From an uncultured Bacteroidales bacterium (lineage in GTDB: Bacteria; Bacteroidota; Bacteroidia; Bacteroidales; UBA932), in NCBI GenBank assembly GCA_900316245.1, contig ONCE01000011.1, positions 1,827 through 65,826 of the forward strand: DNA of 64,000 nt. The letters are read 5' to 3'. The translations under genes were made by a program, and so were the position numbers. Below the pieces are notes generated by a model. It was given only the letters and a program-made list of their open reading frames with translations, was not told the origin of the DNA and ran no database searches. The stretch's first letter is position 1, and each line of letters starts with the position of its first letter. Below, piece after piece: positions 1,604-39,943 of the stretch.

Positions 1604-2413
1604 TTATAACTTATAAGGTAAACAAGGCACTTTGTCCGGTTTTCCAAGGGATGCCCACATAGTATTTCCCTCAAAAGTAATGGCGCAGGAGGTGATATCC
1701 CGCAGGATGGGTTTACCCGAACAGGATATGTTCTTTACAAAGAAAGTATGGTCCCATTCTTCCATAGGAACATAGCTGGAAGCCAGAATCTTATGGGCCT
1801 TGATATACCTATCTACACCTTTTCTGTCTTCTATCCTGCCAGTCGTGGTAAAATTGGTTACCACCCGGTATCCCAACGGTTCCCGGTTCACGTCGAACTT
1901 GGTCCAGCTGGAATTGTTGACTTCATAATAAGCAGCACCGCCCTGATTGTCAATGACACCGAAATTGGCTTCCACATACAGAGGACGGCTGAGCGTATCC
2001 AAAAAATGCTCGAAATCTTCCAGCGTAGCGCAAATCTCCAAAGCCCTGTACATAAGGATACCTTCCCGGTCCATCATATCGGCCGGAATGTCGTCATCCT
2101 TCAAATCATAGGTAGCCGTATTCATAATGGCAAAACCGGTCTCATTCTCTCCGGCCCAGGCCTCGTGGGTTCCCAGAGGAACCTTTGCCAGGGGATTGGT
2201 TCTCCAGTCTGCATTGACCAGGCACATCATACGGTACTTTTCTCCCTGGAAATACTCCACGGCTACATCCTGACAGCTGGAATCCCGGTGCTTGAACATC
2301 ACCGCCTTTCCATCCTTGGTATATTTGCCGCTTACAATGACAGAAGTGCAGGCCAGGGAAGGAATGCACACAAACAAAAGCACTAAAAGGCTAAAATAAC
2401 GAACCGCTTTCAT
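1604..2413 (-). CDS. Secreted N-terminal nucleophile (Ntn) cysteine hydrolase, C45/C59/C69-like
   Basis: Signal peptide [21 protein letters not shown] followed by CTS, then [17 protein letters not shown] and ANFGVID segments typical of Ntn hydrolases. Confidence 0.7.
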
Positions 2414-3431
2414 CTGGAGAATATTTACGTTGATTCAGATAACTTTCCATACCCAGATGGGAATAAGCCAGATCCGTGGCTACACGGCCTCTCTGGGTAC
2501 GGATAATGAAACCTTCCTTGATCAGGAAAGGTTCGTATACTTCTTCCAAGGTTCCCGCATCTTCGCTTACGGAAGTGGCCAGGGTACCGATACCCACGGG
2601 GCCTCCCTTGAAAGTGAGGATGAGCGTACGGAGAATCTTGTTGTCAATGGCATCCAGTCCGCGTTTGTCAATCTTGAGTTTATTGAGGGCAAAACGCGTG
2701 ATTTCCAAATTGATGCGTCCGTCTCCCAATACCTGGGCAAAATCCCGGACGCGCTTTAACAAAGCATTGGCGATACGGGCAGTACCGCGGCTTCTGAGGG
2801 CAATTTCATAAGCTGCATCCTCGTCAATTTCCAAAGCCAGGATGCGGGCGCTGCGGAGTACGATCTTCTTGAGGTCTTCCGTATCGTAATACTCCAGGGC
2901 GCAGTTGATGCCAAAACGGTCCCGCAGAGGAGCCGTAAGCAGACCGCTTCTGGTAGTGGCACCTACCAAAGTAAAAGGATTGAGCGAAATACGCACAGAC
3001 CTGGCCCCTGGACCCTTGTCAATCATAATGTCTATGACATAGTCTTCCATGGCCGAATAGAGGTATTCCTCCACTTCCGGAGAAAGGCGGTGGATTTCAT
3101 CTATGAAAAGGACATCTCCGGTTTCCAGGGAAGTGAGAAGACCGGCCAGGTCTCCGGGTTTATCCAGTACAGGACCGGAAGTAACCTTCATATTGACGCC
3201 CATTTCGTTGGCAATGATATGTGCAAGGGTGGTCTTACCCAGACCGGGGGGGCCGTGGAAAAGAACGTGGTCCAGGGCTTCTCCCCTCAGTTTGGCCGCC
3301 TTTATATAAATGCCCAGGTTGGACACAATTTCCTTCTGACCGGTAAAATCGTCCAGCCCCTGCGGGCGGATAATTCCGTCAAATTCATTATCTTTGCGCT
3401 CGATTGTGTCGTGAGGATCGAATTCGTTCAT
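2391..3431 (-). CDS. ruvB: Holliday junction branch migration helicase RuvB
   Basis: [12 protein letters not shown], Walker [35 protein letters not shown] and [18 protein letters not shown] motifs. Confidence 0.98.
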
Positions 3432-3700
3432 AGGGCGGTTAGATTCAAATCAGATACAAATATAGTTTTTTTATTTTTAAGGAGTTTGTTTTTGATAGGT
3501 TTGTTGAAAAGTTGATAACTTTCTTCAAGTGATTGAAAACTAATTTTTTAAAAGTAAAAGTGATTGTTGAAAAAAGCAGGATGACCTGTTGAGGAAATGT
3601 GAATGGCTTGAACACCCATTTTCTTTAACTCCTGAAAATGAGTTATCAACAGGGTTATCAACAGCTTTTCAACAGGGAAAATGAAGGGAATGTTGATAAG
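3432..3700. other. Candidate replication origin (oriC) / DnaA-box cluster
   Basis: AT-rich divergent intergenic region with six exact TTWTCAACA 9-mers (3502-, 3565-, 3643+, 3655+, 3666+, 3691-) plus degenerate copies; each is one mismatch from the DnaA box TTWTNCACA. Confidence 0.6.
3457..3464 (-). promoter_or_regulatory. -7 promoter element (TATATTTG) for ruvB
   Basis: caaatata at 3457-3464, 25 nt upstream of the ruvB ATG. Confidence 0.65.
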
Positions 3701-6700
3701 TGAAAAATCTTCCTCCCTGCTGCAAAAACAACTTCAAAATGCGTCTGAAGTATTTTGCAGTGGGCTCTTCTTGTCTGCCCGCTGGGCGGTGGTATCCCAG
3801 ACCGCTCCTGAAAAGACCAACCTGATCGTACTCCCCACCCGCGAGTCGGCCGAGTATTGCAGTGCAGACCTCTATAATCTTATAGAGGGAGACTGTGTCT
3901 TCTTCCTTCCCGAGTCGGGTAAGACGGTGGAAAGAAGCAACTACAAATCCTCGCTGGGCGTCCAACGCACCGCCGCCATAGGAAAGATACTCCAGGGGGC
4001 CGATGAAAAACTGTTCATCGTAACCTACCCGGAAGCCCTGGAAGAGAAAGTTCCTTCCCAGAAGAAGTTGGAAGGAGCCCTTTTCACCATATCGGCCGGA
4101 GAAAACCTGGCCTATGAAGCCCTCCGGACCCGCCTGCAGGAAGAAGGCTTCGAAAAAGTGGATTTTGTATCGGCCCCCGGCCAGTTTGCCGTGCGCGGTG
4201 CCGTCATAGACATCTTTTCCTATTCCCTTGAGAAACCCTATCGCATCACCTTCTTCGGAAACGAGGTAGACAAGATCAATACCTTCGACTGCAATACCCA
4301 GCTGTCCATAGACAAATTGGACAGGGCCGATATATACCCGGACATAGCAGCCAAGGAAGCCGAAGAAGAAGGAGTCTCGCTCCTTACCTTGTTAAAGGCC
4401 GATACCACCGTCTGGCTGGATTCTTCGGATATGTATAAGGAAAGGGACTTCTATAAGGATTTATCGGCCTTCCAGAGGGTCTATCTGGATATCCCGCTGA
4501 GCCGGCAGGATGTAGAAAGCATTCCCTTTCACATTGCTCCCCAGCCGGTCTTCAACAAGAACTTCGAACTCCTGATTTCCGACATCCGCTCCCGGATAGA
4601 GAGCAATTACAAGGTCTATATCTTCGGAGAAAAGGAAAGCCAGCTGGAGCGCCTCCGTTCCATTATGCTGCAGGACGAGCACGCCGTGCTTCCGGAGTTT
4701 GTAAAGGACAAGAATATCCACGCCGGTTTCATAGACAACGACAACAAAGTCTGCTGGTATACGGACCACGAGATCTTTGACCGTTTCCACCGGGTGCGCC
4801 TCCGCAGGACCGTGGACAAGTCCGAACAGCTTACCCTCAATGATCTGAGTTCCTTCAACCTGGGAGACTATGTGGTGCATATAGACCACGGCGTAGGTGT
4901 GTTTGGAGGACTGGTCAAGATGAAGGACGACCACGGCCGGATGAAGGAAGTGGTCAAACTCATCTACAGCGGGGGAGACGTGGTGTTTGTTTCGGTCCAT
5001 TCCCTGCACAAGATTTCCCGTTTCCGCTCCAAGGAAGGGGAGGCTCCGCGCATCAACAAACTGGGTTCCAAGACCTGGAGCAACCTCAAGAGTGCCGCTA
5101 AGGCCCGAGTCAAGGACATAGCCAAGGAACTCATCCAGCTGTATGCCCGCCGCCGGGCTTCGCAGGGCTTTGCCTTTTCGGCCGATACTTACCTTCAGGA
5201 AGAGTTGGAATCTTCCTTTATGTATGAGGATACCCCGGATCAGGAAAGGGCTACCAAAGCCGTCAAGGAGGATATGGAGGATACGTGCCCGATGGACCGC
5301 CTGGTTTGCGGTGATGTGGGTTTCGGCAAGACGGAAATTGCCATTAGAGCAGCTTTCAAGGCCGTCTGCGATTCCAAGCAGGTGGCTGTATTGGTACCTA
5401 CAACCATCCTTTCCCTGCAGCATTACGAGACCTTCAAGGCCCGTCTGGCCAACCTGCCCTGCAATGTGGAATATGTGAGCCGCCTCAGGACCGCCAAGCA
5501 GATTTCAGACATCAAGAAGCGCCTCAAGGAAGGAAGTATAGATGTGCTCATCGGCACGCATAAAATCCTGGGAGACGGCTTCGAATTCAAGGATCTGGGA
5601 CTTCTGATCATAGACGAAGAGCAGAAATTCGGCGTGGCCGCCAAGGAAAAACTGCGCAAGTTCAAAAGTTCCGTAGATACCCTTACCCTTACGGCTACCC
5701 CCATTCCCCGTACCCTGCAGTTCTCCCTGCTGGGCGCCCGGGACCTGTCCATCATCCAGACTCCCCCGCCCAACCGCATTCCCATCCAGACGGAAATCAT
5801 CCTCTTCAACGAGTCCGAGATCAAGAGCATCATCAACTACGAACTCAACAGAGGCGGCCAGGTCTTCTTCCTGCATAACAAGGTAGAAGAACTTCCGGCC
5901 ATAGAAGATATCCTCCACCGGCTCATACCGGATATGAAAATCTGCGTGGCGCACGGCCAGATGGAAGCCAAGGAACTGGAAGACCGGATGCTGGCCTTTA
6001 TGAGAGGGGATTATGACCTCCTGCTCTGCACCACCATCATCGAGAACGGCCTGGATATCCCCAACGCCAATACCATCCTGGTCAACCAGGCCCAGAACGT
6101 GGGTCTGAGCGACCTCCATCAGCTCAGGGGCCGCGTGGGCCGCTCCAACAAGAAGGCTTTCTGTTACCTCATCGTTCCGCCGCTCATCAGCATTACCGAC
6201 GATGCCAGAAGGCGCCTCCGGGCCATCGAAGAGTTTTCCGACCTGGGCAGCGGTTTCAACATTGCCATGCAGGACCTGGACATCCGCGGCGCCGGCAATC
6301 TGCTGGGGGCCGAACAGAGCGGCTTCATCTCCGATATGGGCTACGAAACCTACCAGAAGATCCTGACGGAAGCGATGGAAGAACTGGGTATGGAAACCCA
6401 GGTGGTTCAGCGCACGGGCCACGAAAAGTTTGTGGACGACTGCACCATAGAAACCGACCAGCCTGCCCTCATTCCCGACGACTATATAGACATAACGGCC
6501 GAAAAGATCCGCCTGTACAAGCAGCTGGACGCCCTTACCGACGAGCGGGAGATAGACCGCCTGGCCAAGCAGGTGGAAGACCGCTTCGGCCCGCTTCCCC
6601 TGGAGGTGCAAAACCTTCTTTTTGTAGTGAAAATAAGGAATTTGGGCAGCGAGATGGGCTTTGAGAAGATCATCATCAAGAACGGAATGCAGATTATGTT

Positions 6701-6881
6701 CTTTGTGAACAATCCTATGTCTCCGTACTACAAGTCCAAGCGCTTCGAGACCATCCTCTCCCGCGTGAACGAGAATCCAACCCTTTTCAAGTTCAACCAG
6801 GACGGAGGCAAGCTGCGCACCGTTTCCCGCGGGGTGAATACCCTGTCATCGGCCCTTCATATTTTGAAAAAACTCCAATAA
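3681..6881 (+). CDS. mfd: Transcription-repair coupling factor Mfd
   Basis: UvrB-like N-terminus (GQFAVRGAVIDIF), CarD-like RID (GDYVVHIDHGVG), CGDVGFGKTE, DEEQKFG, TATPIPRT, QLRGRVGRS and a TRCF C-terminus. Start may be ATG 3690. Confidence 0.97.
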   Translation: MKGMLISEKSSSLLQKQLQNASEVFCSGLFLSARWAVVSQTAPEKTNLIVLPTRESAEYCSADLYNLIEGDCVFFLPESGKTVERSNYKSSLGVQRTAAIGKILQGADEKLFIVTYPEALEEKVPSQKKLEGALFTISAGENLAYEALRTRLQEEGFEKVDFVSAPGQFAVRGAVIDIFSYSLEKPYRITFFGNEVDKINTFDCNTQLSIDKLDRADIYPDIAAKEAEEEGVSLLTLLKADTTVWLDSSDMYKERDFYKDLSAFQRVYLDIPLSRQDVESIPFHIAPQPVFNKNFELLISDIRSRIESNYKVYIFGEKESQLERLRSIMLQDEHAVLPEFVKDKNIHAGFIDNDNKVCWYTDHEIFDRFHRVRLRRTVDKSEQLTLNDLSSFNLGDYVVHIDHGVGVFGGLVKMKDDHGRMKEVVKLIYSGGDVVFVSVHSLHKISRFRSKEGEAPRINKLGSKTWSNLKSAAKARVKDIAKELIQLYARRRASQGFAFSADTYLQEELESSFMYEDTPDQERATKAVKEDMEDTCPMDRLVCGDVGFGKTEIAIRAAFKAVCDSKQVAVLVPTTILSLQHYETFKARLANLPCNVEYVSRLRTAKQISDIKKRLKEGSIDVLIGTHKILGDGFEFKDLGLLIIDEEQKFGVAAKEKLRKFKSSVDTLTLTATPIPRTLQFSLLGARDLSIIQTPPPNRIPIQTEIILFNESEIKSIINYELNRGGQVFFLHNKVEELPAIEDILHRLIPDMKICVAHGQMEAKELEDRMLAFMRGDYDLLLCTTIIENGLDIPNANTILVNQAQNVGLSDLHQLRGRVGRSNKKAFCYLIVPPLISITDDARRRLRAIEEFSDLGSGFNIAMQDLDIRGAGNLLGAEQSGFISDMGYETYQKILTEAMEELGMETQVVQRTGHEKFVDDCTIETDQPALIPDDYIDITAEKIRLYKQLDALTDEREIDRLAKQVEDRFGPLPLEVQNLLFVVKIRNLGSEMGFEKIIIKNGMQIMFFVNNPMSPYYKSKRFETILSRVNENPTLFKFNQDGGKLRTVSRGVNTLSSALHILKKLQ

Positions 6882-23414: not shown

Positions 23415-24751
23415 AGCACTATCTTTTCCAAAGTGTTCACCCGCTTGGGGTCATAAGGCCGCTCCACGCGGATGTAATTGCCCGTGTAGCCGCCCATAAT
23501 GCCGTTCTTGACGGACGATTCCCACAGGACGGTCTCTTCCAGGCCCTGGTTGGCGGCCACAAACTCGGCGTGCAGTTCTTCGCACAGGGCTTCCAGCCGG
23601 GCCACGCGCTCGGTCTTGAGGCGGTCCTGCACCTGGTCCTTCCACTCGGCCGCCCGCGTGCCGGGACGGCGGGAGTAAGGGAAGACGTGGATGAAGGCCG
23701 GCCGTACGCGTTCCTTCAGGAAGGCATAGGTCTCCTGGAACAGTTCTTCGGTCTCTCCCGGCAGTCCCACAATCACGTCTATGCCAAAGAACACCTTGGG
23801 CTCTCCGGACCGTTCCATAGCCTGCCGGATATAGTCGATGCGGCTGGCAAACAGGGCGGTGTCATATTTTCGGCCCACTTTCTTCAGAAGCGTATCGCTG
23901 CCGCTCTGCAGCGGAATGTGGAAATGCCGCTGGAACTTGGTTCCCGAGGCAATCCAGTCCACAATTTCCGGCGTAATGAGGTTGGGTTCGATGGACGAAA
24001 TCCGGTACCGCTCAATCCCTTCTACCTTGTTCAGGGCCTTCAGCAGATCCAGGAAAGTCTCTCCGGTAGTTCGCCCGAAGTCTCCCGTATTCACCCCTGT
24101 GAGCACCACTTCCTTCACGCCTTCGGCCGCAATGCTTTCGGCCATCTTCACGCACTCGCAGATGGGAATGTTCCGGCTCCGGCCCCTGGCAAAGGGCACC
24201 GTGCAGTAAGCACAGAAGTTATCGCACCCGTCCTGCACCTTCAAAAAGCTCCGGGTCCTCTCGCCTGTACTGTAGGCGCCAAACACTCCGCCTCCTTTGT
24301 TTGACGTTGCGGAGGGTATTGCCTCTGAAACCCTCCGCTTCGCTACGTCCCTCCCATCGGCTTCGCCGACGGGCCCCTCCCCCTCATTGCCGGGGGCGGC
24401 AAAGGTTTCCGAGGCAACACCCTCCGCAACGTCTGTTAAGATATGGGACTTCTCCGTGGCCCCAAAGACCTTCCAAACACCTTCGATGGAGAGGAGCTGT
24501 TCCTTTCGGAGTTCGGCGTAGCAGCCGGTAACTACGATATGGCCCTCGGGGTTGGTCTTGTGTGCGCGGCGGATGAGGTTGCGGGACTTCTTTTCGGCCG
24601 TTTCCGTGACGGCGCAGGTATTGATGAGGTAGACATCGGCCTGGGCGGTCCAGGGGACGACCTCCCAGCCGGCGGCTACAAAACCGCGCTCGTAGGTGGA
24701 CGTCTCGGCGTAATTGAGCTTGCAGCCCAGGGTGGTGAATGCTATCTTCAT
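23411..24751 (-). CDS. mtaB: tRNA N6-threonylcarbamoyladenosine(37)-C2-methylthiotransferase MtaB
   Basis: TLGCKLNYAE, NTCAVT, TGCYA N-terminal cysteines; radical SAM CDNFCAYC; RTRSFLKVQDG; FHIPLQSG. The interdomain linker contains a palindromic insertion. Confidence 0.9.
   Translation of the reverse strand: MKIAFTTLGCKLNYAETSTYERGFVAAGWEVVPWTAQADVYLINTCAVTETAEKKSRNLIRRAHKTNPEGHIVVTGCYAELRKEQLLSIEGVWKVFGATEKSHILTDVAEGVASETFAAPGNEGEGPVGEADGRDVAKRRVSEAIPSATSNKGGGVFGAYSTGERTRSFLKVQDGCDNFCAYCTVPFARGRSRNIPICECVKMAESIAAEGVKEVVLTGVNTGDFGRTTGETFLDLLKALNKVEGIERYRISSIEPNLITPEIVDWIASGTKFQRHFHIPLQSGSDTLLKKVGRKYDTALFASRIDYIRQAMERSGEPKVFFGIDVIVGLPGETEELFQETYAFLKERVRPAFIHVFPYSRRPGTRAAEWKDQVQDRLKTERVARLEALCEELHAEFVAANQGLEETVLWESSVKNGIMGGYTGNYIRVERPYDPKRVNTLEKIVL
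24303..24433. repeat. 131-bp palindromic (MITE/REP-like) element inside mtaB, read in frame
   Basis: 30-bp terminal inverted repeats, 28/30 identical (gacgttgcggagggtattgcctctgaaacc at 24303-24332; ggtttccgaggcaacaccctccgcaacgtc at 24404-24433). Confidence 0.8.
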
Positions 24752-38588: not shown

Positions 38589-39943
38589 TGAAAAAACGCG
38601 AGCATTTCGGCAGCCGGTTTGCCGTTATCATGGCCATGGCGGGCAGCGCTGTGGGCTTGGGTAATATCTGGCGTTTCCCCTATATTATGGGCCAGTACGG
38701 AGGCGCCGCCTTCATCCTGGTCTATACGGCGGCCAGCATCATCCTGGCGCTTCCCATCTTTTACGCCGAGTCCATCATAGGCCGAAGGGCCCGTACGGAC
38801 ACCTTCGGGGCCATGAGCAAACTGGCCCCCGGAACGGCCTGGCGCTGGGCGGGGCTGCTCACCATCCTCTCGCCGCTGCTCATCCTGTGCTACTATTCCG
38901 TGGTGGGCGGCTGGAGCGTGGAGTACCTCTTCAAATCCCTCTCCTTCAGCTTCACGGAAGTGCCGGTGGAAGAAGTTCCGCATTTCTTCAAACGCTTCAT
39001 TTCTTCTCCCTGGCAACCCATCTTTGTGCATACGGTATTTATGGCCCTGGTGGCCGGCATTGTGCTGAGCGGCGTCAAGGACGGCATCGAGCGCTTCTCC
39101 AAGGTGGCGATGCCCGCCCTGTTCCTCCTGATTCTCGTGATCCTGGGTTATTCCCTCACGCTTCCCGGGGCGTTCAAGGGCGTGGAGTACCTGATCAAGC
39201 CGGACTTCTCCAGGCTTACGGCCGATGCCTATGCCGCCGCCCTGGGACAGGCCTTCTTCTCCCTGTCGCTGGGCGTGGGAACCGTCCTGACCTATTCCTC
39301 GTACATTAAAAAGGACGAAGACCTTTTTGTTTCGGGCGTGGGAACCGCGGTAAGCGACCTGGCCTTTGCCCTCATCGCCGGCTTTGCCGTGATGCCGGCC
39401 GTGTTTGCCGCCGGCCTGCAGCCGGGCGGCGGTCCGGGCCTGGTCTTCGAGACCCTGCCGTACATTTTCAACAAGATGGGCGAAGGCCTGCCCATCCTCA
39501 CCACCCTTACCTCGTCCATTTTCTTTGTGGCCATCCTGGCGGCCGCCCTTACATCGGCCATCTCCATGCTGGAAGTGGGCGTGGCCTTTCTCACGGACGA
39601 AAGGGGAATGAACCGCCGCAGCGCCACGCTGCTGCTGGCTTTCCTCTGCTGGGCTGTGGGCATCCTGTGCAGCCTCTCCTTCGGTTCTCTCCGGGGAATG
39701 ACCCTCCTGGGGCTCACCTTCTTTGACTTCCTGGACCACCTCTGCTCAGACTGGCTGCTGCCGCTGGGCGGCTTCCTGTTCACGGTTTTCGTGGGCTGGC
39801 AGATGTCCAAAGATGACGTCAGGGACGAGTTCACCAACGGCGGCACCAAGAACGTGCGCGTCTTCGGCGTGGTCTATTTCCTGATGAGATATCTGGCCCC
39901 GGTGGGCATTGTGGTGATTTTCCTCACCAATCTTTTTTTGTAG
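38588..39943 (+). CDS. Sodium-dependent transporter, NSS/SNF family (copy 2)
   Basis: GSAVGLGNIWRFPY, GQAFFSLSLG and TSAISMLE motifs. Confidence 0.93.
   Translation: MKKREHFGSRFAVIMAMAGSAVGLGNIWRFPYIMGQYGGAAFILVYTAASIILALPIFYAESIIGRRARTDTFGAMSKLAPGTAWRWAGLLTILSPLLILCYYSVVGGWSVEYLFKSLSFSFTEVPVEEVPHFFKRFISSPWQPIFVHTVFMALVAGIVLSGVKDGIERFSKVAMPALFLLILVILGYSLTLPGAFKGVEYLIKPDFSRLTADAYAAALGQAFFSLSLGVGTVLTYSSYIKKDEDLFVSGVGTAVSDLAFALIAGFAVMPAVFAAGLQPGGGPGLVFETLPYIFNKMGEGLPILTTLTSSIFFVAILAAALTSAISMLEVGVAFLTDERGMNRRSATLLLAFLCWAVGILCSLSFGSLRGMTLLGLTFFDFLDHLCSDWLLPLGGFLFTVFVGWQMSKDDVRDEFTNGGTKNVRVFGVVYFLMRYLAPVGIVVIFLTNLFL

Follow-up and report, generated by a model that had tools for sequence, protein, structure and literature searches.

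A probable chromosomal replication origin in the ruvB-mfd spacer of an uncultured Bacteroidales bacterium

Results

Gene arrangement and sequence elements of the ruvB-mfd spacer

The window analysed here is a 64 kb stretch of DNA (C28:1827-65826) from the draft genome of an uncultured gut or rumen Bacteroidales bacterium (G000), which comprises 35 contigs and 2.24 Mb and is 92.8% complete. Near the left end of the window, two genes are transcribed away from a common spacer of 258 bp (3432-3689). The left one is ruvB (2391..3431, minus strand), which encodes the Holliday-junction helicase and was identified by the Pfam domains RuvB_N, AAA_lid_4 and RuvB_C (E=3.6e-78). The right one is mfd (3690..6881, plus strand), encoding the transcription-repair coupling factor, with the Pfam domains DEAD, TRCF, UvrB_inter and CarD_TRCF_RID. 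A preliminary description of the sequence had called this the only divergent gene pair of the window with a long spacer. The divergent orientation is correct, the uniqueness is not exact: crude ORF calls reveal four other divergent gaps of 173-396 bp. The ruvB-mfd gap is, however, the only AT-rich one, with 69% AT vs 39-45% AT in the four others. The GC content of the genome is 56-58%.

The mechanical ORF listing has mfd begin at ATG 3681, but relatives share a start at ATG 3690, which gives a protein beginning with M-L-I-S. Mfd started at 3690 is aligned (tblastn) from its first residue onwards in more than 30 relatives, and this ATG is also kept in the DNA alignment of relatives, so that the true mfd start is probably 3690, not 3681. 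Its first four codons (M-L-I-S) are encoded by one of the repeats described below (3691-3699).

The spacer and the adjoining start of mfd contain six exact copies of TTWTCAACA (3502-3699). This sequence has A in place of C at position 6 of the textbook DnaA box, TTWTCCACA. Positions and strands of the six copies had been reported before and proved correct when checked in the sequence; we regard all six as predicted DnaA boxes. Two of them, both TTTTCAACA, are on the minus strand at 3502..3510 and 3565..3573. Three others, TTATCAACA, TTATCAACA and TTTTCAACA, are arranged head to tail on the plus strand (3643-3651, 3655-3663 and 3666-3674), in an orientation opposed to that of the left-hand boxes. 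The periodicity of 12 and 11 bp described for this triple (3643..3674) is likewise correct. The sixth copy, TTATCAACA at 3691..3699 (minus strand), overlaps the probable mfd start codon (ATG 3690).

Degenerate copies had been noticed near 3510, 3531 and 3587. These are real and are located at 3510-3518, 3532-3540 and 3587-3595, all on the minus strand. The first, TTATCAACT (3510..3518), has one mismatch and is also a predicted DnaA box. It is the upstream member of an overlapping tandem pair, the downstream member of which is the exact TTTTCAACA at 3502..3510 that adjoins an AT-rich tract. The two boxes of the pair (3502-3518) have one base in common and are thus offset by 8 bp. The other degenerate copies have two mismatches each. 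TTTTCAATC (3532..3540) lies inside a second AT-rich tract and is conserved in relatives, while TCCTCAACA (3587..3595) is not conserved in the alignment.

An AT-rich stretch beside the boxes had been pointed out as well. It was found at 3440-3500 (77-87% AT), together with the second tract at 3520-3560 (80-87% AT), and by measured composition the two flank the tandem box pair. Tract 3440-3500 is a candidate DNA-unwinding element, and tract 3520-3560 a candidate alternative unwinding site. On the plus strand the former is T-rich and precedes, on the 5' side, boxes whose plus-strand reading is TGTTGAWAA. Within this tract lies TATATTTG (3457..3464, minus strand), a regular-expression match to TAnnTTTG, the consensus of the Bacteroidetes -7 promoter element. 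The 'tatatttgta' block around TATATTTG is nearly invariant in an alignment of 16 sequences. This element is probably the ruvB promoter.

Occurrence of the box in the window and in the genome

TTWTCAACA occurs seven times in the whole 64-kb window, as compared with an expectation of 0.60 (mean of 100 dinucleotide-preserving shuffles of the window); none of the 100 shuffles reached seven. The only other exact copy in the window, TTTTCAACA at 39465-39473 (plus strand), is isolated. Genome-wide there are 38 copies in 2.24 Mb. Six of them make up a single cluster, and the only other groupings are two pairs. By a Poisson estimate, at least six copies would be found in some 200-bp window of the genome with a probability of ~5e-14. 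The high AT content of the spacer in a genome of 56-58% GC raises the frequency of AT-rich words, and the boxes might accordingly be a compositional artefact of an AT-rich promoter region. The shuffles, the Poisson estimate and the enrichment and positional conservation of the boxes in 55 relatives (see below) effectively refute such a chance origin, to which we give hardly any credence.

Similar clusters elsewhere in the genome had been named as an observation that would argue against an origin; none were found. The spacer holds the only cluster of at least three boxes in the 35-contig assembly, which at 92.8% completeness leaves an unassembled ~7% where a second box cluster could sit. A scan for TTATCCACA or TTATCAACA with one mismatch allowed revealed no rival cluster of canonical boxes in the genome apart from one look-alike. 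This region, C15:10342-10535, contains three copies of TTTTCCACA and was rejected as a rival origin, as the words end palindromic units which are repeated in-frame within a coding sequence. The units are ~55 bp long with inverted ends (GGTTGTGGAAAAT...ATTTTCCACAACC), are in-frame in the ORF C15:9977-10732 and encode repeated PVVENYFSQDFAKNQF peptides. A related unit is present in the next large ORF (C15:11482-13383). The units are similar to an in-frame palindromic element in MtaB (window 24298-24438), and they look like clustered DnaA boxes of canonical type.

Two isolated tandem pairs, each with 12-bp spacing, were seen in other parts of the genome. One (TTTTCAACAgttTTATCAACA, C18:185-205, corresponding to L007:185-205) is located between a lipoprotein gene and a gene starting MPGLIGKKVGM, which looks like that for ribosomal protein L3. 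Similar isolated pairs are found in the relatives L005, L009 and L012, and the C18 pair is possibly a promoter regulated by DnaA. The other pair (C27:98935-98955) consists of the canonical-type boxes TTTTCCACAaagTTATCCACA.

Conservation of the box cluster in relatives

In a RuvB-based scan that covered a single genome for each species, 80 loci were obtained, almost all of them from uncultured Bacteroidales of gut and rumen metagenomes. Many of them are labelled Candidatus Cryptobacteroides, and one is labelled 'Alistipes sp. CAG:514'. In ~53 loci mfd is located divergently upstream of ruvB, as in the window. For the 55 loci with standard geometry, box frequencies were determined in the 396 bp upstream of ruvB and, for comparison, in the remainder of the locus. 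TTWTCAACA is present at 6.9 per kb upstream of ruvB vs 0.063 per kb elsewhere in the locus (~110-fold), and the canonical TTWTCCACA at 0.83 vs 0.02 per kb (~40-fold). Enrichment is low for G (0.14 vs 0.027 per kb) and T (0.14 vs 0.018 per kb) at position 6. At least two exact boxes were found in 49 of the 55 loci. When the sites with at most one mismatch were pooled from the 55 loci (411 sites), the consensus was T-T-W-T-C-M-A-C-A, with an A:C ratio of 362:43 (~8 to 1) at position 6.

In the alignment of 16 sequences the order and orientation of the boxes are kept while the spacers diverge. In the direction of ruvB, the conserved array consists of one box, three head-to-tail boxes of opposite orientation, a middle box, a degenerate TTWTCAAT and an overlapping double box, TTATCAAC(A/T)TTTCAACA, which corresponds to the tandem pair at 3502-3518. 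It is followed by an A/T-rich block that matches tract 3440-3500 and has a nearly invariant TATATTTGTA at its end. L015, the closest relative (RuvB 96% identical), has TTTTCCACA at two sites where the window has TTTTCAACA, including the position of the box at 3565..3573. Relatives also retain the box triple; in L015, L025 and L031 it shows TGTGGAAAA substitutions. Since A and C are exchanged at matching positions and both spellings are enriched, the comparison indicates that they are alternative spellings of one predicted DnaA box, TTWTCMACA, with A preferred. The C6-to-A variant box of the preliminary description therefore holds as a preference for A, not as a strict replacement of C.

To what extent the A spelling is usual in the order was assessed with 201 genomes of the order and a pattern of three exact boxes in both spellings, which was too strict. 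A-type arrays were detected in nine of the 201 genomes (about six of them origin-like) and C-type arrays in two, with backwards-pattern controls matching in four and two genomes. The result lends at most weak support to the A spelling being usual in the order. The cluster upstream of ruvB is absent in the loci from Alistipes, from Prevotellaceae and from most Muribaculaceae. The address between ruvB and mfd may be specific to one family-level group.

Short direct repeats at helical spacing are reminiscent of iterons, and both flanking genes are DNA-repair genes. The cluster could thus be an operator array or a set of iterons that merely resembles DnaA boxes and is bound by another protein, such as a regulator of repair genes or an initiator of plasmid or ICE type. 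We consider this very improbable. Position 6 is enriched only for A or C, the latter being the spelling of the canonical DnaA box. Further, the flanking genes are conserved chromosomal housekeeping genes in stable synteny in ~53 genomes, no initiator or regulator gene adjoins the cluster, and the site coincides with a switch of the replication strand in relatives, as described in the following section.

Strand asymmetry

The earlier proposal of an origin had predicted a minimum of the cumulative GC skew at the locus. Stretches of 217-400 kb surrounding the locus were examined in five relatives with long contigs. In four of the five, on contigs of 217-627 kb, the minimum is within 1 kb of the box cluster. 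Its position is 324,000 in G041 (37% GC; cluster at 324,221-324,386), 418,000 in G042 (44% GC; 417,771-417,897), 204,000 in G046 (35.5% GC; 203,798-204,087) and 63,000 in G048 (45% GC; ~62.6-62.7 kb). None of these relatives has such a minimum elsewhere. The sign of the raw skew is reversed from one side of the cluster to the other in all four; from left to right the skew changes from -0.066 to +0.080 in G046 and from -0.056 to +0.059 in G041. Clean classical skew is a feature of the low-GC relatives (35-45% GC).

For the genome of the window itself the same check was uninformative. The raw cumulative GC skew of the window and of every contig of this genome has no usable minimum at the locus; on contig C28, of which only 5.3 kb are left of the locus, the minimum is at ~17 kb. 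G043, the closest relative with a long contig (54% GC, RuvB 88% identical), also has no V in the raw skew at the locus. The GC skew at third codon positions was resolved into two terms, T for gene orientation and R for replication. For G000 and G043:C1, T is ~-0.2 vs ~±0.03 for R, the third codon positions being C-rich on the coding strand. Both genomes lack a minimum in the raw skew because T swamps R; coding-strand bias dominates in this genus. What the raw GC skew follows in this high-GC genus is the orientation of the genes, and its direction can be contrary to that of the replication signal. With orientation factored out, a weak signal is obtained for G043 (R = -0.045 left and +0.012 right of the cluster). 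Right of the cluster, 81% of the coding sequence of G043 is on the plus strand.

In G000, contig C18 (plus orientation) was placed immediately left of C28 (plus orientation) by synteny with G043; this join is not in the assembly. Along this synteny-inferred join, R is -0.027 overall on C18, with values of -0.01 to -0.07 in windows between -94 and -24 kb. Less than 20 kb from the locus, on either side, it is noisy, and beyond +26 kb on C28 it is +0.024 to +0.045. The fraction of coding sequence on the plus strand is 0.39 on C18 vs 0.55 on C28. By way of the inferred join, the strand asymmetry of this genome is consistent with a switch at the locus, at a resolution of ~±20 kb. When C18 blocks (2-59 kb) are compared with G043:C1 155-233 kb, they have the inverse orientation and lie across the locus from their counterparts, at roughly matching distances. 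As judged from the two sequences, this is the pattern expected from inversions that are symmetric about an origin.

DnaA might also bind the cluster without initiating replication there. The spacer would then titrate or recharge DnaA, as datA or DARS do, or act as a divergent promoter of ruvB and mfd under DnaA control, with the origin elsewhere. One box overlaps the probable mfd start and the -7 element of ruvB is in the AT-rich tract, so that DnaA occupancy plausibly affects both genes; the tandem pairs at C18:185-205 and C27:98935-98955 suggest that DnaA acts at other sites too, and the skew of G000 resolves the switch only to ~±20 kb. A regulatory role is, however, compatible with origin function. 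The skew minima in four relatives fall within 1 kb of the cluster, the genome has no other cluster of at least three boxes to serve as origin, and no good boxes were found in the region upstream of dnaA. We therefore judge a purely non-initiating role to be unlikely.

The DnaA protein

The genome encodes a full-length DnaA (475 aa, C11:7587-9014) as cognate initiator, with an AAA+ domain (PF00308) and domain IV (PF08299). Its alignment with the DnaA of B. subtilis (8btg, E=1.4e-87) runs from end to end. The dnaA gene is located on another contig (C11) than the locus (C28), in agreement with the earlier statement that the candidate origin is unlinked to dnaA; dnaN was not found directly after dnaA. 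In G041, G042 and G043 at least, dnaA and the locus are also on different contigs. The locus of G041 is more than 300 kb from either contig end, and dnaA must therefore be at least that far away. An oriC far from dnaA has been reported to be common in Bacteroidetes (PMC4755523).

Base-specific contacts to the DnaA box are made by R399, P423, D433, H434, T435 and H439 (PMC2533591; contact list also in PMC5043019). In comparison with domain IV of E. coli DnaA (1J1V), R399, D433, H434 and H439 are conserved, while P423S, T435A and R432K are substituted. Two of the six base-contacting residues (P423S, T435A) thus differ from E. coli. From a phylum sample of 121 genomes, 30 DnaA loci were taken, and the recognition motif could be extracted from 24. 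Among these 24 motifs, position 435 is A (13 Bacteroidia sequences) or S but never T, and position 423 is S, A or K but never P. The substitutions of P423 and T435 could cause the preference for A at position 6 of the box.

Discussion

We conclude, with a probability of about 90%, that the ruvB-mfd spacer (3432-3689) together with the box over the mfd start is the chromosomal oriC of this bacterium. This reading of the sequence data, which upholds the candidate oriC of the preliminary description, is backed by the unique cluster, the conserved box order in ~55 relatives, the exchange of A and C and the skew minima in four relatives. A 200-bp region contains six exact and three to four degenerate copies of TTWTCMACA, and AT-rich elements are present, on composition, at 3440-3500 and 3520-3560. 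The expected strand asymmetry was found in four of the five long-contig relatives and, at low resolution, in G000 and G043. Counted against this reading, raw GC skew has no minimum at the locus in G000 or G043, a conserved canonical DnaA-trio array was not found beside the tandem pair, and tract 3440-3500 must double as the ruvB promoter.

Initiation could proceed as follows. The single full-length DnaA encoded on C11 would bind some nine to ten 9-bp boxes with the consensus TTWTCMACA, in two opposed groups. The left group would comprise three minus-strand boxes including the overlapping tandem pair, and the right group the three head-to-tail boxes with 11-12 bp spacing, followed by the final inverted box. 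A DnaA oligomer on the left group would open one of the two adjacent tracts of 80-87% AT, more likely that at 3440-3500 beside the tandem pair. Melting would be followed by helicase loading and then by bidirectional replication. DnaA binding, the choice of the melted tract and firing in this genome are derived here from established DnaA biology.

The oriC of E. coli, between mnmG/gidA and mioC, lies apart from dnaA and has promoters at its edges and two opposed arrays of DnaA boxes. The ruvB-mfd spacer is like it in these traits. The geometry of the candidate unwinding element and its boxes is also that of unwinding element and R1 box in E. coli, with the T-rich strand 5' of boxes that read TGTGGATAA in E. 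coli and TGTTGAWAA here. The two systems differ in the spelling of the box at position 6 and in two of six base contacts of DnaA (PMC2533591).

A tandem pair with an 8-bp offset beside an AT-rich tract, as at 3502-3518, is found in many predictions of the B. subtilis-type basal unwinding system (BUS), which combines tandem DnaA boxes, a spacer, DnaA-trios and an AT-rich region (PMC8287927). Pairs with one shared base are listed for S. aureus and Salinibacter (PMC8287927 supplement). For the one or two tandem boxes of a BUS, up to two and up to four mismatches are allowed (PMC8287927), and TTATCAACT and TTTTCAACA at 3502-3518 (minus strand) are within these limits. The same scheme includes, at 0-16 bp from the box and on the correct strand, at least three DnaA-trios (NAN, 3'-GAT-5' type; PMC8287927). 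Reading the sequence beside the tandem pair revealed no run of at least three trios with central A on the correct strand within 16 bp; the A-rich strand has a polarity opposite to that of BUS. A run of four trios, 3'-GAA AAT GAA AAT-5', follows the box at 3565-3573 after a 4-nt spacer and is not conserved in the alignment.

Predicted dnaA-distal origins of cultured Bacteroidetes (DoriC/Ori-Finder), for instance that of the large chromosome of Prevotella intermedia OMA14, likewise consist of a box cluster at the GC-skew transition (PMC4755523). Their flanking genes differ, and the ruvB-mfd location was seen only in the present family-level group. An A at position 6 also appears in DoriC-based predictions: the unwinding module of Porphyromonas gingivalis W83 (ORI10040013) has TTTTCAACA, that of Odoribacter splanchnicus TTATTAACA and that of Prevotella ruminicola TTATCAAGA (PMC8287927 supplement). 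We found no experimental tests of dnaA-distal predicted origins of Bacteroidetes, including the ruvB-mfd one, in the literature. The consensus of DnaA boxes in Mollicutes (M. pulmonis, S. citri, M. capricolum as well as M. genitalium) is TT(A/T)TC(C/A)ACA (PMC3322544). The 411 sites pooled from 55 loci give the identical consensus, which has W as its third and M as its sixth letter. Mollicutes, however, belong to an unrelated phylum, and their boxes flank dnaA; in the present group, position 6 is A ~8 times as often as C. An origin distant from dnaA is not new in kind, nor is the A6 spelling, and lineage-specific DnaA boxes are already known.

If the assignment is correct, the ruvB-mfd spacer is a landmark to which the origin is pinned in a large family-level group of uncultured Bacteroidales from gut and rumen, known as Cryptobacteroides/UBA932-like genomes from metagenomes. 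This would be of use for orienting draft assemblies, for deriving growth rates from read depth and for the design of shuttle vectors. In the high-GC genus, standard skew-based origin finders that make no correction for gene orientation would overlook the origin or put it in the wrong place, because the coding-strand bias with its C-rich third positions dominates the raw GC skew.

The A-preferring box and the phylum-wide substitutions in DnaA make up a testable case of co-variation of initiator and site. A more far-reaching proposal, which is possible but which we regard as rather doubtful on present comparisons, is that the DnaA-box code has been re-tuned throughout the Bacteroidota, the changes of P423 to S/A/K and of T435 to A/S shifting position 6 from C to A. 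In the family studied here, the origin would in addition be wired into genes of fork rescue, with the ruvB promoter in the presumptive unwinding element, the mfd start in a box and DnaA occupancy gating both.

The genome also encodes a DnaA paralog of 271 aa (L002; G000:C31, ~58.5-62 kb), which contains only the AAA+ domain (PF00308, E=2e-35) and is devoid of domain IV. In this region (L002:1480-2295 and L002:2662-3486, both on the minus strand), the paralog adjoins a short ORF with fragments of a DNA polymerase III alpha finger and an NTPase. The module could be the replication module of a mobile element or a regulator of DnaA.
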